Below, one piece after another: positions 187-41,310 of a stretch of 64,000 nt of DNA. Under the pieces are notes generated by a model. That model saw only the letters and a program-made list of their open reading frames with translations. It made no database searches and was not told the origin of the DNA. The position numbers and the translations under genes were made by a program. Source of the stretch: Planctomycetota bacterium (lineage in GTDB: Bacteria > Planctomycetota > UBA8108 > SXIK01); NCBI GenBank assembly GCA_965223265.1, contig OZ244999.1:8576001-8640000 (forward strand). The letters run 5' to 3'. Positions within the stretch are counted from its first letter, which is position 1, and each line of letters opens with the position of its first letter.

Positions 187-280
187 AGGATCGCTCGGTG
201 CGGCCACATTCGCCTTGAAATCAGCGTCTCGGAAGCTTCTACTGAAGTCTTCGGTCGGTCAAGGCGCGGCGAGGTGCGTG

Positions 281-2848: not shown

Positions 2849-2964
2849 AGTTTTAACGTCCTCGGCATGTCGAACGGCGTTGCCCGCCAGCCGATCGTTG
2901 TCGCCGACGCTCGACGACATGACCGCAGAGTTCGCTCTGCGTGAATCGCAGGAGACGAAGAGCC

Positions 2965-6885: not shown

Positions 6886-8295
6886 ATGTTGCAAAGGATT
6901 GGGCGCTGCCGCTTGCTCTCGGTTGCCTTCTCGCTCGTCGTGGTGACTGAGATCGACGCCGATTCTTGGCCAAGCCACCGTCACGACAGTGCACGCAGCG
7001 GCATCAGCTCGGAGCAGCTCAGCTTGCCGCTCGAAGACGCGTGGGTCTTTGCTTCACGCTATCCGCCGCAGCCCGCGTGGAGCGGGCCGGCAAGGCGCGA
7101 CGGTTGGCACAAAGTTGATCACCTCAAAGCGCGGATGATTTTCGATTGGGCGTTTCACGTCGTCATGAGCGATGACGCCGTCTTTTTTGGTTCATCGGCG
7201 GACGATCAGGTCTACGCACTCGACGCCGACGATGGGCGGGTGCGGTGGAGCTTCTTTACCGAGTCTCCGGTGCGGCTGGCCCCGACTGTGGCTTCCGGCC
7301 GCGTCTTCGTTGGTTCGGACGACGGCTTCGTTTACTGCCTTGAAGCAGTCACGGGCGAGCTCGTATGGAAGGTGCGCGGCGCCCCGCAGGCGCAGCGAGT
7401 CTCCGGCAATGGCCGCTTGATGTCGCTATGGCCAGTGCGTTCAGGAGTCGCGATAGTCGACAACACGGCGTATTTTTGCGCCGGTCTTTTCCCATTCGAG
7501 GGCGCGTACCTGTGCGCTGTCAGCGTAGATGATGGCAGCGTGGTTTGGAGGCACAAACTCGATTTCCTCGCACCGCAGGGGTACATCCTGGCTTCGGCCT
7601 CTCGGCTGTACGTGCCCATGGGGCGGGGGCGCCCGGCGATTTTCGACCGCCGTGACGGTCGACACGTTCGGACTCTGGGTGGCTCTGGCGGGACTTTCTG
7701 TCTGCTGACCGACGATCTTCTGATCTACGGCCCAGGAAAAACTGGGCAGCTGGAGGCGTTCAAAACGGAAGTGCCGGATCAGCTGGCGACGTTCCAAGGC
7801 AATCAGATGGTTGTCACCCCCGGGTCTTCGTACCTGCACACTGATACCGAGTTGACGGCTCTCGACCGAAGTCGCTATCGCGAGATCGCCGAAGCGCGGC
7901 TCGTCCTTGTGAACAGGCGCGAGTCAGTGAAGGAACAGCTCAAGAAGACCGCGAATGCCGCCGCCGAAGCCGCCAACAGCGCAGACGAGCTGCGTCAACT
8001 TTTGAGTGAAATCGAAGAGAAAATTGCAGCGAGTGAAATGTCGATGCGCGAGACGATCCTGTGGCGGCGCTCGTTTGCGTTTCCTTACTCACTCGTGCTG
8101 GCGGGAGACCTCCTTCTGGCCGGAGGAAACGACAGGGTCGCGGCTGTCAGTCGCGACAGCGGAGAGACGATGTGGAGCGCAGCGGTGACCGGACGGGCGC
8201 TCGATCTTGCCGTCGCCTCCGGGCGTCTCATCGTCAGCACCGATCGGGGGACGATTCACTGTTTTCGCAGCCGGAGTGCGGAGGGCGGTGACTGA
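6886..8295 (+). CDS. PQQ-binding-like beta-propeller (BamB-like) protein
   Basis: Signal peptide, WPSHRHDSARSG, repeated VYALDA..G..RW units. Confidence 0.85.
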   Translation: MLQRIGRCRLLSVAFSLVVVTEIDADSWPSHRHDSARSGISSEQLSLPLEDAWVFASRYPPQPAWSGPARRDGWHKVDHLKARMIFDWAFHVVMSDDAVFFGSSADDQVYALDADDGRVRWSFFTESPVRLAPTVASGRVFVGSDDGFVYCLEAVTGELVWKVRGAPQAQRVSGNGRLMSLWPVRSGVAIVDNTAYFCAGLFPFEGAYLCAVSVDDGSVVWRHKLDFLAPQGYILASASRLYVPMGRGRPAIFDRRDGRHVRTLGGSGGTFCLLTDDLLIYGPGKTGQLEAFKTEVPDQLATFQGNQMVVTPGSSYLHTDTELTALDRSRYREIAEARLVLVNRRESVKEQLKKTANAAAEAANSADELRQLLSEIEEKIAASEMSMRETILWRRSFAFPYSLVLAGDLLLAGGNDRVAAVSRDSGETMWSAAVTGRALDLAVASGRLIVSTDRGTIHCFRSRSAEGGD

Positions 8296-11200
8296 TGGCG
8301 ATGACGCACGTTGCAGGATCCTTCGCACATCTCTGGCGGTGGCCGGTTTCGATGCGCGCGCTTTTCGTGCTGGTGGCGACTGCCGCTTTCCTGTGGGTCC
8401 CGACACGCTTGGCGTACGGCGATCCCTTAGCGCATTGGATCTTTTCTGCGCAGAGGCTCGAGCGTGCAGCGGCAGCGGACAGCGGTGAGCGCGGAGCAGG
8501 TGGTGGAATTGACGTTGGACTCGACGGTGCGCTCGACGGTGCGCTCGACGGTGCGCTCGACGGTGCGCTCGACGGTGCGCTCGACGGTGCGCTCGACGGT
8601 GCCGCGCGACTGGCAAGCGTCGTCGATGGCCCGGCTCTCACCGTGCGTGGCCGTGTTGCGTTTCGACCAGGGTTCCCCGCCGGTGCGCTGCTGATCGATG
8701 GAGACGCCACGGAGGTCGAGACTGCTTACACTCCTGACGCTGCCTATTTGCCGCGTCGCGCGTTGACCGTGTCGGCGTGGGTCGCCAACGAAAATACGGT
8801 TGAGTGGGGCGGCATTGTCGGGGCGATTCAAGACCAGCGGAACCTGCAGAAGGGATGGCTCCTGGGCTTTCGGCAATCGAGCTTCAGTTTCGGACTGGCA
8901 TCCACTGGCGCCGACGACGGCGACGGTAAGATCACCTTCGTTCGTTCGCCACACAGTCTCGAGTGGGGGCGCTGGTATCACGTTGTCGGTACCTACGACG
9001 GTGTCGAGCAGAGGCTCTATGTGGATGGTGAGCTCGTCGGTAAGTCCGCAGTGCAGCATGGCGACATCCTCTATCCGCAGGCAGCTCGGTTCCTCATTGG
9101 AGCGTTCAACGACGACGATCAGAGCTTTCGCCATCGCAGCTGGGTGCACGAGGTGCGCCTCGAAGACCGCGCTCTCTCGGCGGCGGAGGTGAAGGAGCGC
9201 TTCGCCGCCAAGCGTCACTTCTTTCCAGAGAGCCTGGATTTCTCTGTCACCCCTGTGGTCACGCGTCTGGATCGAGAATCGATCCGAATCGTCTGGTCCA
9301 CTCGCACGGAACAGCCGACGATCGTCGCGTTCGGTGATCGCCTGCCGCTGGTGCATCGACAGGTGCGGAACGAGGCGTCGACGCGGCGGCATCAGGTGGT
9401 TGTGGAAAACCTGCGCCGCGACCGCATGTACTACTATCGCATCTTCGCTGCCAGAGAAGCTCCGCGGGCTGCGGATTCGGGCGCAGACGCCGGTGCGGAA
9501 CGCCCGAAGAATCGCGATCCCTGGCGAGTTTCTCGTCTGTTCGAATTCGACGCGACGTTCGACTACACGTCACAGCCGCTGCACTGGGCCAGCACGGAAC
9601 CTTCCGCTCGCGCCCCTCTTTCTGCCGCCGAGCTGCTCGCCGACGCGGTGGTTCGTCGCGGTGTTCCAGCGCGCGGCTACTGCCTCATCCTTGGCTGCGA
9701 AGACGGTGATCTTGCCGAGGCGATGGCTCGCCGTACGGGGCTCAAGATCGTCTGCCGAGACGAAGATGCCGACAGAGTGGAACGGCTGCGCCGGCGGGTG
9801 AGCGCTGCGGGTGTCTACGGCGTCCGAGTGAGTGCGCACGTGGGGTCACTTGAGAAACTCGACTACGCGGATTTTCTCTTCAACGTGATTCTGTCGGAGC
9901 GCGCACTTGTTCGCGGTGAATTGCCCCCGAGCCCGTCGGAAGCGTGGCGTGTGCTGCAACCGGGGAGCGGTCTCGTTTACTTCCAACTGCCGGTTGTGGC
10001 AGACGCCAACGAGCGGCCCCAGCATCGCGAGCGTTTGGAGCGTTGGTTGGACTCAGCTACAGCGACGAGTCGCGACGCCGGCGACGCCGGCTCTGCGGCG
10101 ATCTGGGCCTCGGCACGCCGCGAGGAGTTGCCCGCCGCGGGCGAGTGGACGCATCAGTACGCAGATGCTGGTCATTCGGCGAACAGTGGCGACGCGATTG
10201 CAGGCGGCGACATGCGGGTTCTGTGGTTCGGAGAACCCGGGCCGCGGCCGATGGTCGATCGGGGGACGCGGTCGCCGGCGCCTCTGGCCGTGGGTGGACG
10301 CCTTTTCATCCAGGGAGATCGAAGGTTGTTCGCTCTTGACGCTTATAACGGAACGATGTTGTGGACGCTCGAGATTCCGGACCTGCGGCGGGCGAACATT
10401 CCGCGAGACGGCAGCAATATGGTGGCGACGCGCGACTCGCTTTACGTCGCCGTGCGGGATCGTTGCTGGCGGCTGGACGCTCGCACGGGAGAGATGCTGA
10501 AGGCGTTCGTGATCCCGTCTGCGTCGCGCCGCGAGGGCGACGCTGGGCGCGAGCCGGAAGATGGCCATGCAGACGCTCGCCGCAGTGAAACTCCACGAGG
10601 TGAGACTTCAACCGACGAGGCGCCGATACCGGAGTGGGGTTACGTCGGCATCGTCGGCGATGTTTTGTACGGCAGTGCGGTGCGCCGCGGCGGTTCTTAC
10701 GTCGGTGCCGACGGCGAGTGGTATGATCGGCCGGGCGAGGAATCGTTCAAGGTCGTCAGCGAACGTCTCTTCGCGCTCGACCGACGCAGCGGCGAGGTTC
10801 AATGGAGCCGCAGCGGTGGACTGGTCGTCAACTCGACGATCGCGATAGGCGACGGCAAAGTCTATCTTGTCGAGTCGCGCAGCCCAGCTGCCCGCAAGCT
10901 CCAGGCTGGTCGCGTCGGTGACGAGCTCAACACGGACCGCTATCTCGTCGCCGTTGACGCCGCCACCGGCGAGGATGCCTGGGAGCAGTACTACGACTTT
11001 AGTGAAGGTCGTTTCGTTTTCTACCTGACGTACTCAGCCGGGACGCTGTTTGCGCTGAGCACCTCGGACAAGTATCACGCCTATGCTTTCGACGCATCGA
11101 AGGGCGACCTCCTGTGGAAGAAGACGTATCCATGGGCGCGCGATCACCACGGGGGTGCCATGCAGCACCCCGTGATCGTCGAAGACACGGTCTACGCCGA

Positions 11201-11498
11201 GCCGGTTGCCCTAGGACTCAGAACCGGCGACGTCCTGCTCGACGATCTACCGCCGAGACGCGGGTGCGGCGCGATCTCGGCGTCGAAGCGAGCGCTGTTT
11301 TTTCGCGACGGCGACCACACGATGCTCGATCTGGAGACAAAGAAGCGGCGCCGTTGGTCGGGAATTCGATCGGGTTGTTGGCTCAGCATGATTTCTGCCG
11401 GGGGTATCCTCCTGGCGCCTGAGACGAGCGCGGGGTGCTTCTGCGCGCATCCGATACAAACTTCCCTTGCGTTCTTCAGTCTGAACCCCACGCCATGA
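8295..11498 (+). CDS. LamG + FN3/PAP-N + class I SAM methyltransferase-like + PQQ beta-propeller multidomain protein
   Basis: WYHVVGTYDG (LamG), RHQVVVENLRRDRMYYYRI (FN3-like), GYCLILGCEDG (MTase-like), GEWTHQYAD...RSGCW...CFCAHPIQTS (PVC PQQ-propeller C-terminus). Confidence 0.8.
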   Translation: MAMTHVAGSFAHLWRWPVSMRALFVLVATAAFLWVPTRLAYGDPLAHWIFSAQRLERAAAADSGERGAGGGIDVGLDGALDGALDGALDGALDGALDGALDGAARLASVVDGPALTVRGRVAFRPGFPAGALLIDGDATEVETAYTPDAAYLPRRALTVSAWVANENTVEWGGIVGAIQDQRNLQKGWLLGFRQSSFSFGLASTGADDGDGKITFVRSPHSLEWGRWYHVVGTYDGVEQRLYVDGELVGKSAVQHGDILYPQAARFLIGAFNDDDQSFRHRSWVHEVRLEDRALSAAEVKERFAAKRHFFPESLDFSVTPVVTRLDRESIRIVWSTRTEQPTIVAFGDRLPLVHRQVRNEASTRRHQVVVENLRRDRMYYYRIFAAREAPRAADSGADAGAERPKNRDPWRVSRLFEFDATFDYTSQPLHWASTEPSARAPLSAAELLADAVVRRGVPARGYCLILGCEDGDLAEAMARRTGLKIVCRDEDADRVERLRRRVSAAGVYGVRVSAHVGSLEKLDYADFLFNVILSERALVRGELPPSPSEAWRVLQPGSGLVYFQLPVVADANERPQHRERLERWLDSATATSRDAGDAGSAAIWASARREELPAAGEWTHQYADAGHSANSGDAIAGGDMRVLWFGEPGPRPMVDRGTRSPAPLAVGGRLFIQGDRRLFALDAYNGTMLWTLEIPDLRRANIPRDGSNMVATRDSLYVAVRDRCWRLDARTGEMLKAFVIPSASRREGDAGREPEDGHADARRSETPRGETSTDEAPIPEWGYVGIVGDVLYGSAVRRGGSYVGADGEWYDRPGEESFKVVSERLFALDRRSGEVQWSRSGGLVVNSTIAIGDGKVYLVESRSPAARKLQAGRVGDELNTDRYLVAVDAATGEDAWEQYYDFSEGRFVFYLTYSAGTLFALSTSDKYHAYAFDASKGDLLWKKTYPWARDHHGGAMQHPVIVEDTVYAEPVALGLRTGDVLLDDLPPRRGCGAISASKRALFFRDGDHTMLDLETKKRRRWSGIRSGCWLSMISAGGILLAPETSAGCFCAHPIQTSLAFFSLNPTP
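8520..8602 (+). repeat. 12-bp coding tandem repeat (CTCGACGGTGCG) x~7 encoding (LDGA)7
   Basis: Perfect repeat directly visible. Confidence 0.95.
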
Positions 11499-13396: not shown

Positions 13397-15049
13397 GTGA
13401 TGGCCTACCTGGAAACGTCGCTTGGAGGCGGGCAGCGCCAACTCGAGTTGGATGAGCAGCCACTCGTTATCGGACGCAGCCGTGGCTGCGGGCTCGTACT
13501 CGATGGGCTCACCGTGTCTCGACAGCACGCTCGCATAACGGGACACGAGGGCAGGTTCCAAATCGAGGACCTAAACAGTCGAGATGGCACACTCGTCAAC
13601 GGCGAACGTGTCACCGGGTCTCGCGCCTTGATCGACGGCGACACGATCAACATCTGCGACTATCGTTTCGTGTTTTTCGCAGGTTCGGCGAGCTCGAAGT
13701 CAAAGGAGCCGCCGCTGAGTTTTTCCGACCCGATCGATAGCAACACGATGATCATGTCGACGATCGATGTCGGCGCGCGTCGGTCTGTGCCGGAGGTGCA
13801 TCCAGAGGCAAAGTTACGAGCACTGCTCGAGATCAACGGATGTCTACGCGGCACACTCCGCGTCGAGGAACTCCTGCCGAAGGTGTTGGATCGACTCTTT
13901 CATATTTTTCCTGTCGCTCTGGGCGGATTCGTTTTGCTCAAGGACGACGAAAGCGGCGAGCTTGTACCAAAAACCAGTCGCAATCGGGATGGTTCGGATG
14001 CTTCGTTGCGAATGAGTCGTACCGTCGTCCGGCAAGCATTCGAGCGGGAGCAAGGAATTCTTTCGACTGACACGGCCAGTGACGATCTCTTCAAGTCCAG
14101 CGACTCGATCTCGTCGCTCGGTATTCGCTCGGTGATGTGCGTTCCTCTCATGAGCCCCGGAGGAGACGCTTTCGGAGTCCTGCAACTCCACGCAGAGGAA
14201 GGTGGTCACACGTTTTCTACCGAGGATTTGGACCTTCTCGTCAGCGTCGGCGCGACAACGGCGATGGCGCTGGAAAACGTTCGGCTTCACCATCGCCAAC
14301 TCTTGCAGGAGCGCATGCAGCGTGACGTTGAGCTGGCGAGCGATGTGCAGCGGCGATTCCTGCCGGCGCGAAACCCGGAGGTGCCGGGCTATTCGTTCTT
14401 CGCGCACTACGATTCCGCTTACTCTGTTGGCGGTGACTACTACGGGTACGTCGATCTTCCGGGCGGGCGAATCGGCATGGCCATCGGTGATGTGTCGGGC
14501 AAGGGTGTGCCAGCCGCAATGCTCATGGCTCGCCTCTCGAGCGACGTCCGCTACTCGATGACGAGCACGCCTGATGTCGCTTCTGCGATGGGAATGGTGA
14601 ATGTAGCGCTCGCCGAGGCGGAGATTGACGACAAGTTCGTCACGCTCCTCTTGATGGTTCTTGATCCCAAGGAGCACACGGTCACGCTCGCCAGCGCTGG
14701 ACATCTCCTGCCGGTTCTGCGCGACTGCGATGGAGAGTTGACCGAGCTCGGTCGCGGAACCGCTGGTATGCCACTGAACGTTGATCCACGTCCGGAGTAC
14801 ACGTATCGCCAGGCCCGTTTTGACATTGAGCCTGGAAGCGCCGTGCTCTGCTACACCGACGGCATTACGGACACGCAGAGTGCCGATAACGAGTGGTATG
14901 GCATGGAGCGGCTCTATCGAATCTTTGCTACGGCACCACCCGGTGCCGTAGCCGCCGGTGGTGCCATCCTCGACGACGTGCGCGCATTTGGCGCAGGTAT
15001 GCCCGCCGGCGACGACTTGACGCTCCTGTGCTTTGGGCGTGAGGTGTAG
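13397..15049 (+). CDS. FHA-GAF-SpoIIE (PP2C) phosphatase
   Basis: GR..VSRQHA..DLNSRDGT (FHA), SVMCVPL (GAF), GGDYY, GDVSGKG, YTDG, DDLT (PP2C). Confidence 0.92.
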   Translation: MMAYLETSLGGGQRQLELDEQPLVIGRSRGCGLVLDGLTVSRQHARITGHEGRFQIEDLNSRDGTLVNGERVTGSRALIDGDTINICDYRFVFFAGSASSKSKEPPLSFSDPIDSNTMIMSTIDVGARRSVPEVHPEAKLRALLEINGCLRGTLRVEELLPKVLDRLFHIFPVALGGFVLLKDDESGELVPKTSRNRDGSDASLRMSRTVVRQAFEREQGILSTDTASDDLFKSSDSISSLGIRSVMCVPLMSPGGDAFGVLQLHAEEGGHTFSTEDLDLLVSVGATTAMALENVRLHHRQLLQERMQRDVELASDVQRRFLPARNPEVPGYSFFAHYDSAYSVGGDYYGYVDLPGGRIGMAIGDVSGKGVPAAMLMARLSSDVRYSMTSTPDVASAMGMVNVALAEAEIDDKFVTLLLMVLDPKEHTVTLASAGHLLPVLRDCDGELTELGRGTAGMPLNVDPRPEYTYRQARFDIEPGSAVLCYTDGITDTQSADNEWYGMERLYRIFATAPPGAVAAGGAILDDVRAFGAGMPAGDDLTLLCFGREV

Positions 15050-15739: not shown

Positions 15740-16061
15740 GAGCTTCTCTGTGTCGCTGTCCGACGCACCGGAAGGAGTCGTCTGCACCGTCATTGGTAGA
15801 GTCGACTTCGAATCATCGCCAGAGCTCCTCAAGGCGTTGGAGGTCGCGACGCGGAGAAAAATGGATGTAAAGCTCAACTTGAGCAAAGTCGACTATGTCG
15901 ATTCCTCCGGCATCGCCGTGCTGATTCAAGGCGTCAGAATGGCACGGCGGAGCTCGGTAGGGTTCTCACTCCGCGGCGTCCAGCGAACGGTCATGTCGGT
16001 GATCGAGCTGAGCCAACTGCAGCAATTCTTCGACATCGAGCGCGCAGAGGCCGACCAATGA
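15732..16061 (+). CDS. STAS domain protein (anti-anti-sigma / MlaB-like)
   Basis: LNLSKVDYVDSSGIAVL with the phosphorylatable Ser motif. Confidence 0.9.
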   Translation: MSKSFSVSLSDAPEGVVCTVIGRVDFESSPELLKALEVATRRKMDVKLNLSKVDYVDSSGIAVLIQGVRMARRSSVGFSLRGVQRTVMSVIELSQLQQFFDIERAEADQ

Positions 16062-20056: not shown

Positions 20057-21076
20057 TTACCGCGGGTCGAAATCCAGAACGCCGAAGAGCTCCGTGCGCA
20101 CGGCGGCATCCGCGGGGCGCTGCTCGAGCAGGTCGAGGCTGGCGCGCAGATGACCAGGCTGCTGCTCGTTGCCGGGGACGAAGAGTAGTTTGACCGGGTC
20201 GTAGCGGACTTCTCCGAATGGGCCAAGCGTGTCCCACAGCTGCGCGCCGGAGATGATCGTCTCGTCTACCTTGCGGCCGAAGAAGCCTCGACGCGCCCGC
20301 GGGCGTCTGTGAAGGACGAGATCCGTTTGCGGCAGCATGGTGGCCTGGGTGGAGTTCCAAACGCAGAGTGTTTGAATCTTGCCATCGACGCGTGCTGGTT
20401 GAATCAGCGGCACCTCAACAACTCCTGGCTCATAGAAAGCGAGCACCATCCGCCGGGTGCAACCGAACTTGTAGAGATACTCGCATTTCTCTTTCGGCCA
20501 GATCTGGATCGCACCTTCGTTCGGCAGCGCAGCGTAAAGAACCCGGTGTCTGTCACGCCAACGCTCGAAGGCGTCGTCTCGGTCGACTGGCTGTGGCTCT
20601 TCATCCTCATCGCCCGCTTCGTTGTCGTTATCGTGAAGCATCACGACGTCCAATCCTGCCGCGCTCTTGAGCTCGTCGATGAAGCGCCAGGCCTCGGTAA
20701 GAAAGAACCTCGGACAGAAGATGGGAATGTGGATGGCGACTGGCGGTGCGTCGACGAAGACGTCCTCATCGTCGTCGGATTCGAATAACTCGTCGTCATC
20801 GCGCGCGGCGTGGATCGTGTCGTCGAGAACGTCGACGTGCCGAGGTACAGCCGAATGCCGCAGGTGGTCTTCGATGTCCCCGGGGCCTTGTAAAAGGCCG
20901 GTCGACAGCACGACCGAAAAACGAACACACGTGCCTTCATCGTAGTACACAAAGTGCCCATCGTCCGAGGTTGGGAGCAGATGGGGATAGCCGAGCACTT
21001 TTTCGACGACGAGCTCGGGGTTGACTGTGTGGTCGGAGAGCGGCACCAGGAAAAGATCGAACGTTGGTCTGGCCAC
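20057..21076 (-). CDS. Hypothetical acidic protein
   Basis: Long ORF with protein-like composition; start uncertain (GTG 21076 or 21142). Confidence 0.65.
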   Translation of the reverse strand: MARPTFDLFLVPLSDHTVNPELVVEKVLGYPHLLPTSDDGHFVYYDEGTCVRFSVVLSTGLLQGPGDIEDHLRHSAVPRHVDVLDDTIHAARDDDELFESDDDEDVFVDAPPVAIHIPIFCPRFFLTEAWRFIDELKSAAGLDVVMLHDNDNEAGDEDEEPQPVDRDDAFERWRDRHRVLYAALPNEGAIQIWPKEKCEYLYKFGCTRRMVLAFYEPGVVEVPLIQPARVDGKIQTLCVWNSTQATMLPQTDLVLHRRPRARRGFFGRKVDETIISGAQLWDTLGPFGEVRYDPVKLLFVPGNEQQPGHLRASLDLLEQRPADAAVRTELFGVLDFDPR

Positions 21077-21146
21077 AGCGAGGACGTTGCTCTTGCGATG
21101 GAGATGAAGCGGTCTTTCGGCGGAGGAAGGACGATACCACAAACGA

Positions 21147-21303
21147 GGTAGAAACTGGAGGGGATCGGACTCGGATGCCGGGTAGAGAGGGAGCCAGAGT
21201 CAGAATCACAGACGGATACAGATACAGATGCAACAACAGAGACGGATTCGGATATCGGAAACAGAGCCAGATACAGATTGCGGCAGTCGGATCCCGAGTA
21301 CGG
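21147..21303. repeat. Degenerate period-6 repeat array (CAGATA/CGGATA/CAGAGT-type)
   Basis: cagagt cagaat cacaga cggata cagata cagatg ... cggatt cggata. Confidence 0.75.
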
Positions 21304-21362
21304 GTGGCCCGTGCAGGCGGCCCACCGAGGCGGGCTAAAGACTGATGAGAAGCGCCGTGACC

Positions 21363-21390
21363 AGCGCCCGCTACGAAAGTAGCGGGCGCT
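21363..21390. terminator. Perfect 12-bp stem hairpin downstream of the four-helix-bundle gene
   Basis: AGCGCCCGCTAC-GAAA-GTAGCGGGCGCT; no U-tract on either side, so terminator function is uncertain. Confidence 0.55.
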
Positions 21391-21402
21391 TGGGCGTCTC
21401 GC

Positions 21403-21726
21403 TCAGCGCGTGAGTCCGCTGAGAAGGGCTAGGAGTCGATCGAGGGTCTGGAGAGGCACTGAGACGTCTTCGGTCTTGAGATCGCCCCGGGCCACCGAGA
21501 GCTGCAGGGCAGTCTCGACCTCCCGGGCACTGCCGCGCGCAACGCGATAGAGGTGCAGCCGATCCTTTCCAGCGCGCTCGGCACCCTCCGAGAGATTGAG
21601 CGCGACGGAAGAGGCAGCCCGACGAATCTGCCGATGGAGATCGGGATCAAGCCGACGCAGCCGCAGCAATGGAGCCCGCAAGTCGCGAATCAAACCGAGA
21701 CTGACATCGAGAGCGATGAAGCGCAT
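21403..21726 (-). CDS. Four-helix bundle protein (Avd / 23S rRNA-IVP-like family)
   Basis: DLHRQIRRAASSVALNLSEG..R....ARGSAREV signature; GGAGG RBS before ATG 21726. Confidence 0.9.
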   Translation of the reverse strand: MRFIALDVSLGLIRDLRAPLLRLRRLDPDLHRQIRRAASSVALNLSEGAERAGKDRLHLYRVARGSAREVETALQLSVARGDLKTEDVSVPLQTLDRLLALLSGLTR

Positions 21727-21880
21727 GGGAGACCTCCGCAGAACGTAGAGTGAACAGCTCCGCCGCATCCGGGCGGCGGTACTCCACCCCCCAACGCGGA
21801 GCGGAGTGGGTGTCAAGGGCGCGCAGCGCCGAGCGCAGCGAGGGGACTCTTGACCACGGGTAGCCCACACTGATGTTGGT

Positions 21881-22330
21881 TTGACGACCGTAACGGTCTT
21901 CTATCCCTACCACCCCCTTGCGGGACGCTCTCTGCCGGTCGTTCGGCGGACCTCGAGAGAACCGCCCTGCTACTTGGTTCAAATCGAGAAGCGCCAGCTC
22001 TTGGTGCCGTGCTGGATGACCGAGGAGAGCGCTATGTGGGTGGAGCTGTGTAGATCGCCCCACATCGACGTGGAGGAGCTCCTCGTCATTGCGGCGATCG
22101 TAGAGTCTCGACTCCAAGAAGCACCATCGTCCATCCTTGACTCAGAACCAACTCGAACCAAGGAGGAGGACGATGGTGTGGACGCAGCTTACTCTACCGT
22201 TCTTGCCGCCGGAAGATCAAAGCGTGCTCGCAGTGCTGAGCGCGAAGGAGCGGGAGGAAATCGCTCGGGCAGTGGCGATTCTCCTGCAGGCGATCATCGA
22301 GAACCACGGTGTGGAGGGCGAGAACGATGA
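21881..22330 (+). CDS. DUF5372/Y4bD-like small protein of recombinase elements
   Basis: VTVFYPYHPLAG...LVPCWMT motif typical of ORFs upstream of these recombinases; true extent uncertain. Confidence 0.55.
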   Translation: MTTVTVFYPYHPLAGRSLPVVRRTSREPPCYLVQIEKRQLLVPCWMTEESAMWVELCRSPHIDVEELLVIAAIVESRLQEAPSSILDSEPTRTKEEDDGVDAAYSTVLAAGRSKRARSAEREGAGGNRSGSGDSPAGDHREPRCGGRER

Positions 22331-22340
22331 GGATCGATAG
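22173..22340 (+). CDS. Small helical protein coupled to the recombinase
   Basis: AGGAGGAGG RBS, ATG 22173, QLTLPF...REEIARAVAILLQA; overlaps the recombinase start. Confidence 0.6.
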   Translation: MVWTQLTLPFLPPEDQSVLAVLSAKEREEIARAVAILLQAIIENHGVEGENDEDR

Positions 22341-24417
22341 CAATCATCCAGGTGGCGTCACTACCGAGCACCTCAGGCGCGCGGCAGTAGTATACATTCG
22401 TCAATCGTCGCCAACACAGGTGAAGAACAACGAAGAGAGCACGCGCCTGCAACGCGAACTGAGGCACAAGGCGGTCGATCTTGGCTGGCGCGAGCCGATT
22501 CTCATCGAGGACGATCTCGGCGAGTCGGCTTCTGGATTCGTCGATCGCCCCGGCTTCGAGAAACTGAAGAGCTGGGTCATTGCCGGGGAAGTCGGGATTA
22601 TCTTCTGTCTCGAGATTTCCCGACTGTCGAGGAATTCGGTGGACTGGGCGCGACTGATGGAGCTTTGTCAGCACTTCAATACGCTGATCGCGGACACCGA
22701 GCAGGTCTACGATCTGTCGCTCTCTAACGACAGACTGTTGATCGGCATCCGTGGCTCGATCTCAGAAGCCGAGCTTGCGACGATTCGCTTGCGATTGCGC
22801 CTAGGTCAGCAGGCGAAAGCGAAGCGAGGTGAGCTGTGGATTCAGTTACCGATCGGCTACGTCTACGACGACACTGAGATTGTCTTCGATCCCGACGAGA
22901 GAATCCGTACCGCGATCCGCCGTGTCTTTCAGGACTTCCGTGGCTCCAGTAGTGCCCGACAGCTCGCATTGCATTACCGAGACGCGGGGATCGAGTTTCC
23001 GAGTCGGGGCTTGGGCAACAAGACGGTCAGGTGGGCGGTGCCGTCGGCCAAGTCGCTACACAACCTCCTGGTCAATCCGACCTATGCTGGAGCCTACGCT
23101 TGGGGTCGTTCAAGGACGACAAGCAAGATCGCCGATGGGAGGCTGGTCAAACAGCGTGAACGTCGGCAAGATCCTGGTGAAGCTCGGGTGATGATCCGTG
23201 ACCATCACCCAGCCTACATCGATTGGTCAGAGTACGAAGCGAACTTGAAGAAGCTATCGCAGAATCGACCGCGAAGAGGGCTCGACGGCAACCGAGGAGC
23301 CGCGCGGGAAGGCCAGGCTCTCCTGGCGGGGATGTTGCGTTGTGGTCACTGTGGCGATCAGCTGAAGGTCCGGTACCGATACGAGAAGGCCTTCTATTAC
23401 TGCGACGGCACACGAAAGGGGAACTCACGCATTTGTCTCTCTGTTGGGGCATGTCGCGTTGACCCGATCGTCGCGCAGCAGTTGTGTCGAGCGCTTGACT
23501 CCTCGGGGATCGAGGCTGCGACCAGGGCGTTCGAGCAGATCGAGAAGAGCCGAGCCGACGAGTTGAACTACGCGAAGCAGCAGGTCGAGGCTGCGCAGTA
23601 CGCCGCCAGTCATGCATTCGAACAGTTCGACGCGTGCGATCCGAGGAATCGCCTTGTTGCGGACAACCTCGAGAAACGTCTCAACGACAAGCTTCAGCGG
23701 CTTGCCGAGGCAAAGGAGACACTCCACAAGCAGCAGTCGTCGAGATTGACGTTGACTGTCGCAGAGCGAAAACGTCTCGAGACTCTCGCACGGAACTTCC
23801 AGTTGGTCTGGCGATCGACGATTGATGTCAGGCTGAAGAAGACTCTGCTGCGAGCAGCGATTCACGAGATCATGATCAAGGAGAGCGGCGAGCTCGTTGG
23901 ATCCAATCGGCAAAGTCGCCGCCTGGAATTGACGATTCACTGGAAGGGCGGCGTACACTCTACCTCCGAGCTGTTGCGATTCCCCTCTCCGAAGGCATCA
24001 AGGGAAGTTTCGGTGCTCGAGCTGATCAAGCGGCTCAGCGCCGCGGCGCATAGTGACAGCGAGATTGCCTTAGTGCTTAACAGACGAAGGCTCACGACCA
24101 CACGGTGGACCAAAGACAAGGTGACCGAATTTCGCAAACACAACGGTATCAATTCAGCGCAGTCCTCCGATGATGCGTTGTCGATGAACGGCGCCAGCAA
24201 GTACCTAGGAGTTTCCTCGATAGCATTACGTACGCTTGTCGAACGAGGATTGATCAGGAAAAACCAAGTCGCCGAGTTCGCCCCCTGGCGCGTCTCTCGC
24301 CACGAGCTGGACTCCCCAGGAGTCCGGAGCCTCGTGGCGACGCTCAAGGCGACGGGTCGATTCCCGCCTAAGGAGGGCTGCGCGAAGAACCAGATGACGC
24401 TCTTCGACGACCTATGA
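22327..24417 (+). CDS. Large serine recombinase (resolvase + recombinase + Zn-ribbon + coiled-coil + HTH)
   Basis: AVVYIRQSS catalytic motif, EISRLSRN, NPTYAGAY, HHPAYI, CGHCG...YYC, DPRNRLVA. Confidence 0.93.
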   Translation: MRIDSNHPGGVTTEHLRRAAVVYIRQSSPTQVKNNEESTRLQRELRHKAVDLGWREPILIEDDLGESASGFVDRPGFEKLKSWVIAGEVGIIFCLEISRLSRNSVDWARLMELCQHFNTLIADTEQVYDLSLSNDRLLIGIRGSISEAELATIRLRLRLGQQAKAKRGELWIQLPIGYVYDDTEIVFDPDERIRTAIRRVFQDFRGSSSARQLALHYRDAGIEFPSRGLGNKTVRWAVPSAKSLHNLLVNPTYAGAYAWGRSRTTSKIADGRLVKQRERRQDPGEARVMIRDHHPAYIDWSEYEANLKKLSQNRPRRGLDGNRGAAREGQALLAGMLRCGHCGDQLKVRYRYEKAFYYCDGTRKGNSRICLSVGACRVDPIVAQQLCRALDSSGIEAATRAFEQIEKSRADELNYAKQQVEAAQYAASHAFEQFDACDPRNRLVADNLEKRLNDKLQRLAEAKETLHKQQSSRLTLTVAERKRLETLARNFQLVWRSTIDVRLKKTLLRAAIHEIMIKESGELVGSNRQSRRLELTIHWKGGVHSTSELLRFPSPKASREVSVLELIKRLSAAAHSDSEIALVLNRRRLTTTRWTKDKVTEFRKHNGINSAQSSDDALSMNGASKYLGVSSIALRTLVERGLIRKNQVAEFAPWRVSRHELDSPGVRSLVATLKATGRFPPKEGCAKNQMTLFDDL

Positions 24418-24577
24418 AGGTAAATCGACCGGGTTGTATCAAAGATTCGTCAGATTACGTCGGCTTACACCGAAAGGACTTACGACAGCGGAAGGTTGGA
24501 GGTGCATTGTGTGCTCGACTTCACACCCGCGAGCACCGCGTACGCTCGACAAGACCGCCGCCGTACGGTGACCCCAA

Positions 24578-25018
24578 CCCACACGGACTCCCACAACTCC
24601 CACACGGACTCCCACACGGACTCCCACACGGACTCCCACACCCACGGGAACGGCCGACGCGCACGCCGACAAGGCCGGACGGCACACGGCGTGTGCCTGC
24701 CACGTTGAAGAGGCGCGCACCCACTCCCACACGGACTCCCACAACTCCCACACGGACTCCCACACGGACTCCCACACCCACGGGAACGGCCGACGCGCAC
24801 GCCGACAAGGCCGGACGGCACACGGCGTGTGCCTGCCACGTTGAAGAGGCGCGCACCCACTCCCACACGGACTCCCACAACTCCCACACGGACTCCCACA
24901 CGGACTCCCACACCCACGGGAACGGCCGACGCGCACGCCGACAAGGCCGGACGGCACACGGCGTGTGCCTGCCACGTTGAAGAGGCGCGCACCCACTCCC
25001 ACACGGACTCCCACACGG
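24578..25018. repeat. 136-bp tandem repeat x3 built from CCCACACGGACT 12-mers plus a REP-like palindrome
   Basis: GGCACACGGCGTGTGCC palindrome starts at 24681, 24817 and 24953 (period 136). Confidence 0.92.
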
Positions 25019-25195
25019 CCTCCCCCTCCCACGCCCACGCCCACTTCCCCTCCCACTCCCCCTCCCACACGGACTCCCCCTCCCACTCCCCCTCCCCCTC
25101 CCACGCCCACGCCCACGCCCACGCAAACGCCCACGCAAACGCCCACGCCCACGCAAACGCAAACGCAAACGCAAACGCAAACGCGAACGCAACAA
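25019..25195. repeat. Low-complexity hexamer array (CCCCCT/CCCACT/CCCACG/CAAACG)
   Basis: Directly visible; strongly C/A-rich on +, G-rich on -. Confidence 0.9.
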
Positions 25196-25393
25196 GATTT
25201 GCCGACACGTCGAGCCTGCCCGCTTCTGACAGAGACCGAACCAGCGACGGACGCCGGCCCCACGATGGCCCGGGCAGCTGGAAACTCGTCCGCGATCGCC
25301 GCCGCGGATCCGTTACACTACGCAGGCCGCCGGTTCGTTCTGGACTGGTTGGCGCGTCGAGGTGTCATCCAGTGCAAGGCTTGCAGGTGATTC

Positions 25394-26659
25394 ATGGGAC
25401 CGTTGACTGAGTTTGTTCGCAGCCTACCGATTACCGACGTGCACGAGCACCATCTGCCTGAGGTTTTCCTCAACCGCGATGTCGGCCTGCTCGATCTCCT
25501 TCATCAGAGTTATGCCGGCTGGACGCAGGCGCGCCCGTATCCCCTACCGTCAGAGGCACGTGAGGAGGATCCGATGCTTGCCAGTCGCGGCGAGGGTTCA
25601 TGGGAGGAGGTCGCGCGCTTTGTCGAAGGGAGTGGCTCGTCGACGTTTGTGCGTAACCTCGTTTGTGCTTTGATTGAGCTTTACGACCTCGACCCGTCTG
25701 GAATCACGGCCGAGAACTGGCGCGATGTGGATGCCGAGGTGCGGCGTCGTCACCGTGACCCCGATTGGCCTTCGGAGGTCATGCGGCGGGCGCGGACGAC
25801 CCACATCATCACCGACGCCTACTCCAACCCGCTCTTAGACGCACGGCCAGCACTGGGCGCTTCCTATCGCTCTGTCATGCGGATCAACGGTTTTGCCATG
25901 GGCTTTCATCCCGACCGCGCCGACCACAACGGCAACAGCGCATTCAGCTTGGCTGCGCAGCTCGGGCGTCGCCTCGATCACTTCGACGACTTTGTCGATT
26001 TTCTCGATCACGCCGTCGAAACGATGGCAGATCGAGGCCAAGTCGCGATCAAAAACGCGCTGGCATACGACCGTGATCTTTGTTTTGACGCACCGAATGA
26101 AGATCTTGCTCGCAGCGCGTGGGGGCAATTCGATCCACCTCCGGAGGCGCAGAAAGCCTTCGGCGACTTTGTTGTCGACCGATTCTGTCGGCTGGCGGCT
26201 GAGCAGGACATCCCTGTGCAGATGCACCTTGGCTCGGCTCTGATCCGCGGTTCACACCCCCTCAACGTCGCAGATCTGATCGAACGGCATCCCGCGACGC
26301 GTTTTCTTCTCATGCACTTCGCCTACCCGTGGAGCGTCGACTTGCTCGGGCTGGCGTTTGTTTACCGCAATATCTGGCTTGACCTGACATGGTCGTTTCT
26401 CCTAAGCCCGACGCATTTCAAGCGCGCTCTTCACGAAGCCATCGAAGTTTTGCCGAACGAGGCGCGGATGATGCTCGGCGGCGACAACTGGCACGCCGAA
26501 GAGAGCTACGGCACCTTCGAGTTGGCGCGCCGGTTGATCGGCGAGGTTTTGGACGAGAAGGTAGAAGCGGGTTACTTCGCTCAGCGCGACGCAGAGCGGC
26601 TTGCACGGAAGGTCTGCAGCGAGAATGCGAACGAGTTTTTCCAGTTGGATGCTGTGTGA
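25394..26659 (+). CDS. Amidohydrolase-family protein (uronate isomerase-like TIM barrel)
   Basis: TDVHEH, VQMHLG, LLMHFAYP, LGGD, ENANEFF. Confidence 0.82.
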   Translation: MGPLTEFVRSLPITDVHEHHLPEVFLNRDVGLLDLLHQSYAGWTQARPYPLPSEAREEDPMLASRGEGSWEEVARFVEGSGSSTFVRNLVCALIELYDLDPSGITAENWRDVDAEVRRRHRDPDWPSEVMRRARTTHIITDAYSNPLLDARPALGASYRSVMRINGFAMGFHPDRADHNGNSAFSLAAQLGRRLDHFDDFVDFLDHAVETMADRGQVAIKNALAYDRDLCFDAPNEDLARSAWGQFDPPPEAQKAFGDFVVDRFCRLAAEQDIPVQMHLGSALIRGSHPLNVADLIERHPATRFLLMHFAYPWSVDLLGLAFVYRNIWLDLTWSFLLSPTHFKRALHEAIEVLPNEARMMLGGDNWHAEESYGTFELARRLIGEVLDEKVEAGYFAQRDAERLARKVCSENANEFFQLDAV

Positions 26660-34455: not shown

Positions 34456-35661
34456 TCAGTCCTCTTTGTAGTACACGGTGTCGACCGTCGCGGCCGTTTG
34501 GAAGGCGTTCTGCACCGCCTCGACCACCTGCGAGCTGTAGTAGAGGTCGACGGTTCCATTAACGGTGATCTCGGCGGTGTCGGACTCGCCCCGGTCGACG
34601 GCGCTGAAGGAGTCCGTCACCATGATGGCGCCGTAGACCTGCACCTCCGAGCCACCGCCGGTGAAGCGCAGGTCGCCGCGCACGACGATCAGGCCGTGGT
34701 ACTGAAAGTCGCCACTAATGTCGAGTGAGCCGTCGACGACAAGGATGCCGGCGCCGGTCGTCGTGCCGGCGAGAGTCAGGTCGCCTTCGACGCCAAGGAA
34801 TTTGAAGTCCTGACTCTCCCAGCTGCCCAGGTCTGCGCCTCGATAGGTGTCGCTGTCCAGAGGGGTCGCGAACGCGAAGAGCGTATCGGCGAGGTCGTTG
34901 ACATCCGCCTCCGTGGTTTCACCGACCGAGGGGTAGCCCCCCGCGCCTTCGAGTTGGTCATAGTTCCTTTCGTTCACCTGTGAGAGCAGGGCAGCGAGGT
35001 TTTCTCCTGAGTCGTCTGGGTCGGCCTCAGTCATCAGCGCCGGCAAATCGTCACCGTCCCCGTCCGAGCCGTCCGGGTTGGTGTCGTTGCCGGAGATGAA
35101 GAAAGCGTTGCCGCTGAAGTCGAGAGCGACGCTCGGGTCCACCACAAGTGAACCGACCTCGGGAACGGTGAAAGCGTCCGTCGTCTGGACGAGTTTCTCA
35201 ACCGTGATTCTCTCGCCGTCGCTGACCGCCGTTGCGAGGACGCGCTGAACGCCTGCGAACGAAGTGTCCACAACGGTCGTGTAGAGGGTCAGATCGAGCC
35301 GGTCCGATCCAATTCTGACGGGCACGACTCCAGGCTCGCCGTCGGTCGGCAGGCCGTCCGACTCGCCGTCGTCGAGCGTGCTTGGATAGCCGTCAGCGCC
35401 AAAGTCGCCGTTTTCCGTCCACTCCGTTGTGCCAATGAAGCCGGCGTCGCCGACGTTGTTTTTGAAGTCATGGATGGCGAGCGCCAGCCCTGATTCGGCG
35501 GCTCGCCGCAATTCAGACTGCGATTCGAAGAACGTCGCCTGTTGCTGGTTCTTGACGAAGAACGTCGTTTGAGCCATCGACAGTCCAGCCAGAAGCGTGA
35601 AGGCGATGACGGTGACGATGAGCGCGTTACCCTGGTTACGACCCGAAGAAATATGAAGCAT
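34456..35661 (-). CDS. PilX-like minor pilin (paralog 1)
   Basis: RNQG/NALIVTVIAF prepilin-like N-terminus, AAESGL, C-terminal GAGILVVDGSL/GLIVVRGD beta-helix. Confidence 0.75.
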   Translation of the reverse strand: MLHISSGRNQGNALIVTVIAFTLLAGLSMAQTTFFVKNQQQATFFESQSELRRAAESGLALAIHDFKNNVGDAGFIGTTEWTENGDFGADGYPSTLDDGESDGLPTDGEPGVVPVRIGSDRLDLTLYTTVVDTSFAGVQRVLATAVSDGERITVEKLVQTTDAFTVPEVGSLVVDPSVALDFSGNAFFISGNDTNPDGSDGDGDDLPALMTEADPDDSGENLAALLSQVNERNYDQLEGAGGYPSVGETTEADVNDLADTLFAFATPLDSDTYRGADLGSWESQDFKFLGVEGDLTLAGTTTGAGILVVDGSLDISGDFQYHGLIVVRGDLRFTGGGSEVQVYGAIMVTDSFSAVDRGESDTAEITVNGTVDLYYSSQVVEAVQNAFQTAATVDTVYYKED

Positions 35662-36706: not shown

Positions 36707-37897
36707 ATGTTCCGGATGAAGCGTGACGAGGCTCAGCGCGGTAACGCGTTGATCCTGACACTGATTGCGTTCACTCTGCTCTTCGGCTTCTCGACAGCGC
36801 AGGTGATGGTCTACCTGAAGAACCAGCAGCAAGCGGATTTCTTCACGGAGAGGTCGCGCCTACGAAGCTTCGCCGAGTCGGGGCTGGCGATCGCGATCCA
36901 CGACGTTCGCGAGAACGTCACCGCGAATCCCGGTTTCGTCGGCACCCAGAACTGGACTGTCGACGTAGACTACGGCGCCGACGGCCTGCCGAGCACGCTT
37001 GACTACGGTGAGGGCGATGGCCTGCCGACGCCGGGTGAGCCAAACATTTCGCCGGAGCAGATTGGCGACGTCAGCGACTCCGCCAACCTGATCGTCTTCG
37101 TCGAGCCGACAGCGTTTGCAAACGTGCAGCGCGTCATTGCCACCAGTTACACCAACGAGGAGAGCGTGACGGTCGAGGAGCTTCTGCAGACCGATGTCGT
37201 CCAAGTGCCAAAGGTGGCTGCCGTCTACGTCGACCCAACCTCGGCGCTTGATCTCAAGGGCAACGCCTTCATGATCGACGGTAACGATTACAACCCCGAT
37301 GGGACGGCCGGCCCAGAGTCGGCGCTTCCGGGGATCGTCACCGAGAATGGCGACCCGCCCGGGGACAACCAGGCGGCGCTGCTGAGCCAGTTGCAGACGG
37401 CGGACTATGATCAGATCGACGGTCTCGGCGGCACGCCGTCGCTCGGTGAGACGGATCCTGTGGACGTCTCCGCGCTCGTCTCCGAGTTCATGAGCGTCAG
37501 CACAAATCCCGTCACCGCCGGCACCTACTCGAACATCACTTGGGGTGACTGGAACTCGAGTCAACTGGAGGTGACGACGGTTGAGGGCGACCTCCATCTG
37601 ACCGGGAATGGCTCTGGCGCCGGCGTGCTCGTTGTCGACGGCGATCTGACCATCGCCGGTGACTTCACGTTCAACGGCTTGATCTTGGTGCGCGGCGACG
37701 TACGGCTCACGGGCGGTGGCTCGTCGGTGCACGTCTACGGTTCCGTCCTGGTCACCGAGTCGTTCAACGCGATTGATTCAGAGCTCTCGGTCCTGGGTAC
37801 GGCCGATCTTTTCTACAGCTCCGAAACATTGAATGCGGCGCAGACCCTGATCAACGGGAATCCTGACTACGTCGCTGTCTACTACGACGAGGAGTGA
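36707..37897 (+). CDS. PilX-like minor pilin (paralog 2)
   Basis: AQRG/NALILTLIAF, FAESGL; colinear paralog of 34456-35661. Confidence 0.78.
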   Translation: MFRMKRDEAQRGNALILTLIAFTLLFGFSTAQVMVYLKNQQQADFFTERSRLRSFAESGLAIAIHDVRENVTANPGFVGTQNWTVDVDYGADGLPSTLDYGEGDGLPTPGEPNISPEQIGDVSDSANLIVFVEPTAFANVQRVIATSYTNEESVTVEELLQTDVVQVPKVAAVYVDPTSALDLKGNAFMIDGNDYNPDGTAGPESALPGIVTENGDPPGDNQAALLSQLQTADYDQIDGLGGTPSLGETDPVDVSALVSEFMSVSTNPVTAGTYSNITWGDWNSSQLEVTTVEGDLHLTGNGSGAGVLVVDGDLTIAGDFTFNGLILVRGDVRLTGGGSSVHVYGSVLVTESFNAIDSELSVLGTADLFYSSETLNAAQTLINGNPDYVAVYYDEE

Positions 37898-41274: not shown

Positions 41275-41310
41275 CGGAGTAGCCGCGGAGTAGCCGCGGA
41301 GTAGCCGCGG
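41275..41310. repeat. 11-bp tandem repeat (CGGAGTAGCCG) x3
   Basis: Directly visible, intergenic. Confidence 0.85.

Follow-up and report, generated by a model that had tools for sequence, protein, structure and literature searches.

At positions 21147 to 25195 of a 64,000-nucleotide stretch of Planctomycetota DNA (contig OZ244999.1; this 64-kb stretch is called the window below), a small gene for a four-helix-bundle protein lies between two arrays of six-nucleotide repeats, and a serine-recombinase gene lies between the small gene and one of the arrays. Do the gene and the arrays form one element, or did they come to lie together by chance? We found that the gene occurs in many copies in its genome, that the one related locus read at another site is also bracketed by period-6 arrays, and that arrays are gained and lost together with the open reading frame (ORF) in the wider family. 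For these reasons the gene, its hairpin, and its arrays together are very probably a module that is now or was formerly mobile, as the original prediction for this stretch had proposed in calling it one repeat-associated module. As to the kind of module, we favor with moderate confidence the reading that positions 21147-25195 hold a decayed, recombinase-disrupted copy of a multi-copy insertion cassette of the intervening sequence (IVS) type, and that the arrays are part of this element.

The gene, its copies, and its two arrays

The features of the locus are as follows.

21147 to 21303, no strand assigned: left array, lying 3' of the gene and made of degenerate hexamer repeats (period-6 autocorrelation, TRF)
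21304 to 21402, minus strand: gene trailer, resembling a terminator but without a U-tract; two smaller stems besides the perfect 12-bp hairpin (21363-21390)
21403 to 21726, minus strand: four-helix-bundle family gene, 107 amino acid residues, pI 11.2 (PF05635, TIGR02436)
21727 to 21869, minus strand: gene leader, with a local GTCAAG/CTTGAC stem at 21813-21854; ends in GCCCACAC
21870 to 24570 (approximate ends), plus strand: separate mobile element, with an ORF at 21881-22330 and a large serine recombinase at 22327-24417
24571 to 25195, no strand assigned: right array, 12-mers, a 136-bp repeat in three copies, and a hexamer run, on the 5' side of the gene

Taking out the stretch at about 21870-24570 leaves about 1.35 kb, in agreement with the cassette of about 1.4 kb that had been predicted. 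Both period-6 arrays, the hairpin, and the gene proved to be real parts of it, but a sequence register said to be shared by the arrays and a structured segment upstream of the gene did not rise above chance.

The 107-residue protein scored 52.5 bits against PF05635 (23S rRNA-intervening sequence protein; cutoff 33.8, E 6.5e-14) and 53.6 bits against TIGR02436 ('four helix bundle protein'; cutoff 24), and these two scores above the cutoffs confirm the predicted family. A profile of its relatives matched the solved structure 2gsc (XCC0516) over residues 30-105 (E 4.3e-8). The ribosome-binding site GGAGG lies 6 nt ahead of the ATG. The hairpin starts 13 nt past the stop codon, and its 12-nt arms (21363-21374 and 21379-21390) are 100% complementary and enclose a 4-nt loop. 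The hairpin is thus perfect, as predicted, but its loop reads GAAA only on the plus strand and UUUC on the strand of the gene. No U-tract follows it on the gene strand, and a sigma-70 promoter and terminator consensus scan of 21000-25500 called no promoters and no terminator at the hairpin. The trailer (21296-21410, minus strand) folded more stably than all of its shuffles (z -3.55; 0 of 200 as stable). For the segment ahead of the gene (21727-21875, minus strand), which had been described as structured, 136 of 200 shuffles were as stable (z +0.50), and only the local stem appeared.

The gene had been taken for an orphan, and this did not hold. We found 17 intact distinct sequences (the window's included) on one contig of 9,179,496 bp. 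A protein search gave four clusters at 82-97% identity, all from this contig, on which the window's protein and its amidohydrolase are both listed. The intact paralogs are 80-99% identical to the window protein. Among the 17 sequences the mean identity was 93% over residues 1-73 and 76% over residues 74-107, and eight different residues occurred at position 85. One further, aberrant form outside the window (P0009, 134 residues) matches up to about residue 55, then diverges, and shows patches of similarity later on; it has the look of a frameshifted pseudogene from this family. In the window copy, the codon at 21487-21489 gives residue 80 as R instead of the nearly invariant W (W80R), and this is the sole difference from the paralog P0120. 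Such a single-residue change suggests relaxed constraint on the window copy.

The subfamily to which the gene belongs comprised 1502 cluster representatives at E <=1e-3, and the named relatives of the gene come from Myxococcota-type metagenome-assembled genomes (MAGs). The top match of the search that gave the 1502 representatives, a protein of 6182 residues (P0148), matched query residues 66-96 in 20 separate places and is more likely a repetitive or coiled-coil protein than a relative.

That period-6 arrays flank the gene, as predicted, was confirmed by autocorrelation and by Tandem Repeats Finder (TRF). The autocorrelation at period 6 was 0.50 in the left array (21147-21303) and 0.76 in the hexamer run of the right array (24992-25195), compared with 0.17-0.47 at periods 3-5 and 7-9. 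When 120-nt sliding windows were taken across the whole 64 kb (mean excess 0.029, standard deviation 0.057), the period-6 excess peaked at 0.30 in the left array and 0.44 in the right array, and every one of the nine best period-6 windows lay within the two arrays. Since the period-3 identity was low (0.14-0.39) in these best windows, the signal is not coding periodicity. The two arrays are the strongest non-coding period-6 signals of the window.

TRF placed a period-6 repeat of 10.5 copies with 66% matches at 21215-21278 in the left array. In the right array it found the 12-mer ACTCCCACACGG, a perfect 136-bp repeat in three copies at 24608-25015, and hexamer runs at 24992-25192. All four period-6 TRF repeats of the window with at least six copies fall within these arrays. 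On the gene (minus) strand the left array is pyrimidine-rich, with a purine fraction of 0.33, and the right array is G-rich, with a purine fraction of 0.56 as a whole and 0.65 in the hexamer run. The right array holds four of the six canonical G-quadruplex (G4) motifs found on both strands of the window, at 25022-25120 on the minus strand, which is the sense strand of the gene. The left array did not fold more stably than shuffles (z +1.16). The CnnAnn register that was said to unite the arrays fitted, at its best phase, 35% of the left units and 35% of all right units; it fitted 76% of the units of the right hexamer part. The mean background fit was 11%, and 2 of 407 background segments reached 50%.

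For pairing between segments we calculated duplex z-scores from mononucleotide shuffles, which keep the composition, and genomic segments were therefore added as controls. The immediate flanks of the gene were not complementary to each other (duplex z +0.7). A short candidate pair, GGGTGGCCCGTG at 21304-21315 and CACGGGTAGCCCAC at 21856-21869, was noticed by eye only. The outer arrays of the window copy have no inverted relation. An exact look-up of nine ORFs (spanning the arrays and the upstream ORF) found none of them in the protein collection, though their start codons may differ.

The large-serine-recombinase element is a separate insertion between the gene leader and the 5' array. The recombinase (696 residues) matches PF00239 (Resolvase), PF07508 (Recombinase), and PF13408 (Zn_ribbon_recom), all above the cutoffs, and lies far below the cutoffs of the XisF and Ccr equivalog models. 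The ORF ahead of it gave a weak, sub-threshold match to DUF5372 (E 0.016-0.07). The recombinase is also multi-copy, with three distinct sequences of at least 90% identity on the 9,179,496-bp contig. The GCCCACAC at the end of the leader looks like the right array's first unit, which would mean that the array once continued across the insertion. A TG/TG crossover was considered at the ends of the element (21870-21871 and 24569-24570) and set aside, as dyad symmetry gave it no support.

Arrays around related genes, and filled and empty sites

The closest comparison comes from one related locus of the same lineage at another site (L001), which lies on a MAG contig, has different neighbours, and shows 57% identity. 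Two convergent genes of the family lie there, separated by a strong hairpin. The left side has period-6 arrays at 1749-1806 and 1885-1975 and the right side at 2868-2939 and 3031-3134, the last being a perfect run of CCGGAG in 17.3 copies. These four are among the five period-6 arrays of the locus with at least six copies. The arrays on each side are inverse-complementary to one another (duplex z -6.8 and -8.2), and in both genes a leader hairpin encloses the ribosome-binding site (z -6.1 and -8.8).

Beyond this lineage, tblastn of the window protein gave no match in plasmids at E <=1e-3 (five weak cyanobacterial matches at E <=10) and none in phages at E <=0.01. An annotated plasmid collection contained 36 matching records, all of distant members of the family. 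Thirty-four of these are cyanobacterial, and 20 of them were examined together with both of the others. Across both sets of loci, 21 of the 22 annotated family genes in the 20 cyanobacterial records had a period-7/8 array within 60 nt of an end, as against 8 of 110 control genes, which were other genes not adjacent to a family gene. In the first 11 loci an array (period 5-8, 14, or 16) lay within this distance of an end in 12 of the 13 family genes, and at both ends in 8 of the 13; of the 110 controls, 8 had one at one end or the other and none had one at both (Fisher p 1e-10 and 1e-9). A second set, of nine loci, gave the same picture, with an array at one end of all nine genes and at both ends of seven. 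As for the flanks of related genes, for which a lack of repeat enrichment had been named as the contrary outcome, the opposite was found, the flanks being strongly enriched in repeats.

The 36 flanking arrays had a period of 7 (29 arrays) or 8 (7 arrays), with medians of 4.5 copies and 32 nt. The upstream flank scored at least 29 against the reverse-complemented downstream flank in 9 of 13 family genes and in 2 of 110 others. On the gene strand, the nearest upstream array was purine-rich in 12 of 13 cases and the nearest downstream array pyrimidine-rich in 12 of 13, and the window arrays match this polarity (0.56-0.65 upstream, 0.33 downstream). By our own reading, about 10 of 12 pairs of proteins that are at least 72% identical share the same, a rotated, or a related repeat unit. 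The flanks of several relatives can pair (duplex z -5.3 in L006, -6.0 in L008, -3.2 in L010, and -2.2 in L012); L005 gave 0.0 and no stem. In L005, a gene on a Gemmatirosa plasmid, an array of GAGGGCAG and its inverse lie upstream, and (CTCCTGCC)x4.2, the inverse of the upstream array, begins at the stop codon. The Azospirillum gene (L006) is a classical IVS, being placed within 23S rRNA sequence and flanked by inverse heptamer-type runs.

Two further observations concern arrays apart from an intact gene. In the plasmid pNsp_b of Nostoc sp. ATCC 53789 (L004, 2700-3000), an insert of about 250 bp that has no ORF splits a family gene into two coding sequences. The borders of the insert are formed by the same G-rich and C-rich heptamer runs as are found on either side of the whole gene, which suggests that array-bounded elements without an ORF may also insert. 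In plasmid 1 of Gemmatirosa kalamazoonensis (L005), pairs of inverted arrays with 9-10-nt units occur at 14308-14401 and 15884-15953, away from family genes; these pairs, ACAGGATGA/CATCCTGTC and CGCAGAGGA/CCTCTGCGG, are tandem-repeat hairpins with a small loop.

Family genes often lie inside operons, on the same strand as the operon genes: between cas10 and cmr3, between cas6 and cas4 (in two genera), between parA and parB, and in conjugation and defence operons. Copies within cas operons were seen in three cyanobacterial plasmids, in L003 and L013 between cas6 and cas4 (type I-D) and in L010 between cas10 and cmr3 (type III-B). A figure legend of PMC10910872 names '23S rRNA IVP' (intervening-sequence protein) among CRISPR-linked domains, and family genes within cas operons may explain this.

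Sites that are filled in one plasmid and empty in another allowed us to ask whether the arrays belong to the insertion. In all three such comparisons the ORF and the arrays were present or absent jointly. The first concerns Picosynechococcus PCC 7003, in which cas10 and cmr3 are separated by about 430 bp made up of an array, the ORF, and an inverse array. The III-B site of PCC 7002 is empty; its cas10 and cmr3, 90% identical to those of PCC 7003, are 12 nt apart and have no array between them. Trichormus plasmid C carries a 428-bp insert (L012, 9942-10369) with GTAA at both ends and inverse heptamer arrays as its termini, at a place where pCC7120beta reads AAAAAGTAA directly followed by TTAACAAA, and the flanks are about 98% identical. 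Among the matches listed for this site, three records are filled and 8 of 12 rows have a coverage gap where the element lies; seven of these gap rows span 1670-1673 bp, compared with 2101 bp. The third comparison is an integrase locus, for which, among the matches listed, three records are filled and nine Nostoc plasmids span about 1095 bp, compared with 1801 bp; two further listed rows give partial coverage at other spans. One type of element, with arrays of TCAGRAG and proteins that are 77-85% identical, occupies different sites in L012, L019, L020, and L021. Presence and absence were seen in cyanobacterial relatives. In the relatives, then, comparison of sequences shows that the arrays are part of the element: empty sites lack them, the element has them as its inverted ends, and they vary together with the protein lineage.

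Explanations of the cassette, and its surroundings

According to the reading that we favor, the cassette would consist of a PF05635/TIGR02436 ORF that has a ribosome-binding site and a trailing hairpin of its own and lies between two arrays, the 5' arm being a purine- or G-rich array of short period and the 3' arm a pyrimidine-rich array. At the RNA level, complementary arms would pair into a long stem. By analogy with the 23S IVS, this stem might let RNase III excise the ORF from the host transcript, and it might also mask the purine-rich, Shine-Dalgarno-like 5' arm or the ribosome-binding site. At the DNA level, the arms would serve as terminal inverted repeats, and the small insertion that they bound would have a target duplication of 3-4 bp; slippage would make the copy number and the units drift. 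The large-serine-recombinase element, also multi-copy, would have landed later between the leader and the 5' array. The window copy itself is probably immobilised and decaying; it is read so because its arms are non-complementary and over-long, because it is split by the recombinase, and because it carries W80R.

Several points weigh against this reading. The two window arrays are no more similar to each other than shuffled sequences (score 14 in direct and 16 in inverted orientation, the shuffle means being 16.1 and 16.8), and they are not complementary (duplex z +0.7), pairing being equally good for 64 of 150 and for 131 of 150 random segments of the window. With 157 and 625 nt they are far longer than the family median of 32 nt, their period is 6 and not 7 or 8, and they lie about 100-140 nt from the ORF and not within 60 nt. 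The evidence for period 6 in the lineage comes from two loci, the window and L001. The cyanobacterial sample covers 20 of 34 records, and it is not phylogenetically independent because it consists mostly of Nostocales. The interrupted gene L004 entered the counts of the first set as two genes. In Pseudanabaena (L003) heptamer arrays occupy most intergenic gaps, and the association of array and gene is therefore non-specific there. Lastly, as a proxy for adjacent hexamer arrays, dipeptide-type runs were found in 8 of 47 N- or C-terminal extensions of relatives, with 2.8 expected from shuffles, a weak excess.

The same properties of the window arrays, their lack of mutual similarity and complementarity and their unusual length, would also be expected if the arrangement were a coincidence, namely if slippage-prone repeats arose in a permissive divergent intergenic region (for example as promoter spacers or G4 tracts of the genes at 20057 and 25394) and the gene and the recombinase landed there by chance. 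In favor of this, the left array adjoins the putative start of the ORF at 20057-21142; the right array is a G4 cluster, like the free-standing G-rich heptamers of Xanthomonas and Nostoc described in passages of PMC4692102; and the perfect 136-bp repeat in three copies and the (CAAACG)n runs point to ongoing local expansion. However, the only strong non-coding period-6 arrays of the 64 kb flank this gene, and the same is seen independently at L001. Array adjacency is family-wide when compared with controls, and the window arrays carry the purine/pyrimidine polarity of the family. We therefore consider coincidence unlikely.

A second explanation, which builds on the original prediction, gives the repeats an active role. 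The protein would bind its own repeat RNA or single-stranded DNA (for example one unit per subunit of a pentamer), or a polymerase acting in trans with an Avd-like cofactor would write the arrays onto the ends of a linear intermediate, as telomerase does. Copy numbers cluster at about 4-5 units (median 4.5; 32 of 36 arrays have 3.0-5.9 copies), and the solved homologue is described as a homopentamer in the part of PMC4990558 that deals with it. But the floor of three copies in TRF truncates this distribution. The units co-vary with the protein lineage, which simple co-inheritance predicts equally. Variation among the paralogs is concentrated in residues 74-107 of a protein with a pI of 11.2, and inverse arrays with purines 5' and pyrimidines 3' on each strand would be expected if one unit were added to both 3' ends. 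Against this stand the lack of a reverse transcriptase or other polymerase among the 48 ORFs of the window, the lack of a repeat resembling a template and variable repeat pair, and the lack of a match to the Pfam bAvd model. We regard this explanation as quite improbable.

It is very improbable that the serine-recombinase element has the gene and the arrays as its cargo or its ends, 21147-25195 then being one integrative element: a multi-copy recombinase (three distinct sequences on the same contig) does lie inside the stretch, but the copy numbers differ (17 distinct sequences against 3), L001 and all plasmid loci have gene and arrays with no such recombinase adjoining, the gene is on the opposite strand, and the insertion parts the leader from the apparent first unit of the upstream array.

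The reading of the window as a decayed IVS-type cassette can be carried further. PF05635 ORFs with their cognate arrays might be an unrecognised, phylum-spanning class of mobile cassettes, the rRNA IVSs being those copies that came to lie in rRNA, and array hairpins that lack an ORF being derivatives. Such cassettes could be a source of the hexamers and heptamers known in cyanobacteria and other bacteria as short tandemly repeated repetitive sequences (STRR, the name used for the cyanobacterial heptamers) or long simple sequence repeats (LSSR). They could also explain '23S rRNA IVP' genes in cas, conjugation, and defence operons, and the pentamer might control or mobilise the cassette by reading about five units of its cognate array. 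We put this forward tentatively, as a proposal with more chances against it than for it.

The question bears on the role of the 'four helix bundle protein' family, which is very large and whose function is unknown. The origin of ORF-bearing rRNA IVSs has been open since the 1990s according to passages of PMC4990558, and the origin of the intergenic heptamer arrays of cyanobacteria, Xanthomonas, and others is presented as open in the parts of PMC4692102 and PMC4679880 that treat it. These three puzzles would merge into a single problem that can be tested if gene and arrays together make up one insertion unit; filled and empty sites are already present in tractable strains (Picosynechococcus PCC 7002 and PCC 7003, Nostoc PCC 7120). 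For annotation, such a unit would mean treating the small genes that interrupt cas, conjugation, and defence operons as insertions and not as members of the operon.

The neighbours of the cassette are protein-coding genes, including the ORF at 20057-21142 (minus strand) and the gene at 25394-26659 (plus strand). An Rfam search of the whole window gave no family above its gathering score, hence no rRNA, and the PADLOC defence-system models matched neither the gene, nor the recombinase, nor the neighbours. As had been stated, the window contains no reverse transcriptase or transposase among its 48 longest non-overlapping ORFs of at least 90 residues; only the serine recombinase was found.

Some observations elsewhere in the window do not concern the cassette. 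A perfect 12-mer tandem repeat, CTCGACGGTGCG in 6.9 copies at 8520-8602, is coding and unrelated to the cassette; it lies inside a 1067-residue ORF at 8295-11498 with Laminin_G_3 and PQQ domains. A perfect 11-mer repeat, CGGAGTAGCCG in 3.3 copies, occurs at 41275-41310. Two long inverted repeats, each 71% complementary (34601-34791 with 37580-37770, and 35333-35444 with 36930-37041), join ORFs on opposite strands that have no Pfam matches, and these are probably diverged paralogous genes. At 215-4287 there are genes with PSCyt2/PSD1 (DUF1549/DUF1553) and DUF1501 domains, families that we take to be typical of Planctomycetota.

Comparison with known systems

The window protein is small and basic, like Avd, the accessory protein (bAvd, PF22296) of diversity-generating retroelements (DGRs), and the two share a fold superfamily according to passages of PMC10053308. 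Unlike Avd, the gene has no adjacent reverse transcriptase, and no RVT domain occurs in the 48 ORFs of the window. No template and variable repeat pair was found there either, the long repeats of the window being only the arrays and paralogous gene segments. At E <=0.01 the bAvd model did not match the window protein, which matched only PF05635; the Gemmatirosa and Azospirillum relatives gave weak matches below the cutoff. The DGR reading was rejected, because there is no reverse transcriptase or transposase domain in these ORFs and no repeat resembling a template and variable repeat pair, and because the protein fits the IVP model and not bAvd.

There is a likeness to repetitive extragenic palindromes (REP/REPIN) and their REP-associated tyrosine transposases (RAYT), in which a gene is also flanked by repeats with which it is evolutionarily associated. 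RAYTs are homologues of HUH transposases and are single-copy, and their palindromic repeats are dispersed. The present gene, unlike these, is multi-copy and belongs to no nuclease or transposase family, and its repeats are local tandem arrays.

The relatives also resemble MITEs (miniature transposable elements with inverted repeats) and small insertion sequences, in that a discrete insert of about 428 bp has inverted ends and a duplicated GTAA or TAA, is present or absent between 98%-identical plasmids, and occurs as the same element type at several sites. They differ in that the ends are tandem repeats whose unit varies with the lineage of the element, and in that the sole ORF is no known transposase.

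The arrays themselves are like the long simple-sequence repeats of 5-11 nt that are described, in parts of PMC4692102 and PMC4679880, as intergenic tandem arrays of short period and unknown origin that are rich in G, prone to G4 formation, and often arranged as inverted, convergent pairs. Examples are the inverted GGGAATC pairs of Xanthomonas, the free-standing G-rich heptamers of Xanthomonas and Nostoc (passages of PMC4692102), and the TAACTGA repeats of Beggiatoaceae and cyanobacteria (passages of PMC4679880). Unlike those repeats, the arrays studied here are tied to one gene family and move with its genes. In the available passages of the two papers, the terms 'S23', 'four helix' or 'four-helix', and 'intervening' occur 0 times. 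In the literature found, a link between this gene family and flanking tandem arrays is made only in the paper on the Coxiella IVS (PMC4990558, passages), the original papers on the Leptospira IVS and on STRR being outside the search.

The closest known system is the ORF-bearing 23S rRNA IVS ('S23p'/PF05635; Coxiella, Leptospira), which has the same protein family and a small ORF between flanking repeats. Passages of PMC4990558 call the Coxiella IVS a selfish genetic element, report that the heptameric repeats upstream of the IVS ORF vary in number among Coxiella strains, and state that a role of this ORF in mobility was proposed long ago. They also describe the complementary borders of such IVSs as forming a stem that RNase III cuts. 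As in the IVS, the flanking repeats of the relatives studied here are complementary and form a stem, and L006 shows inverse heptamer-type runs. The window copy differs in that its arrays are of period 6, are hundreds of nt long, are not complementary to each other, and form no stem that encloses the ORF. The element had been presented as a candidate for an undescribed one; its architecture is that of the ORF-bearing 23S rRNA IVS (L006, and passages of PMC4990558), but the copy in the window lies outside rRNA and has a ribosome-binding site and a trailing hairpin of its own.

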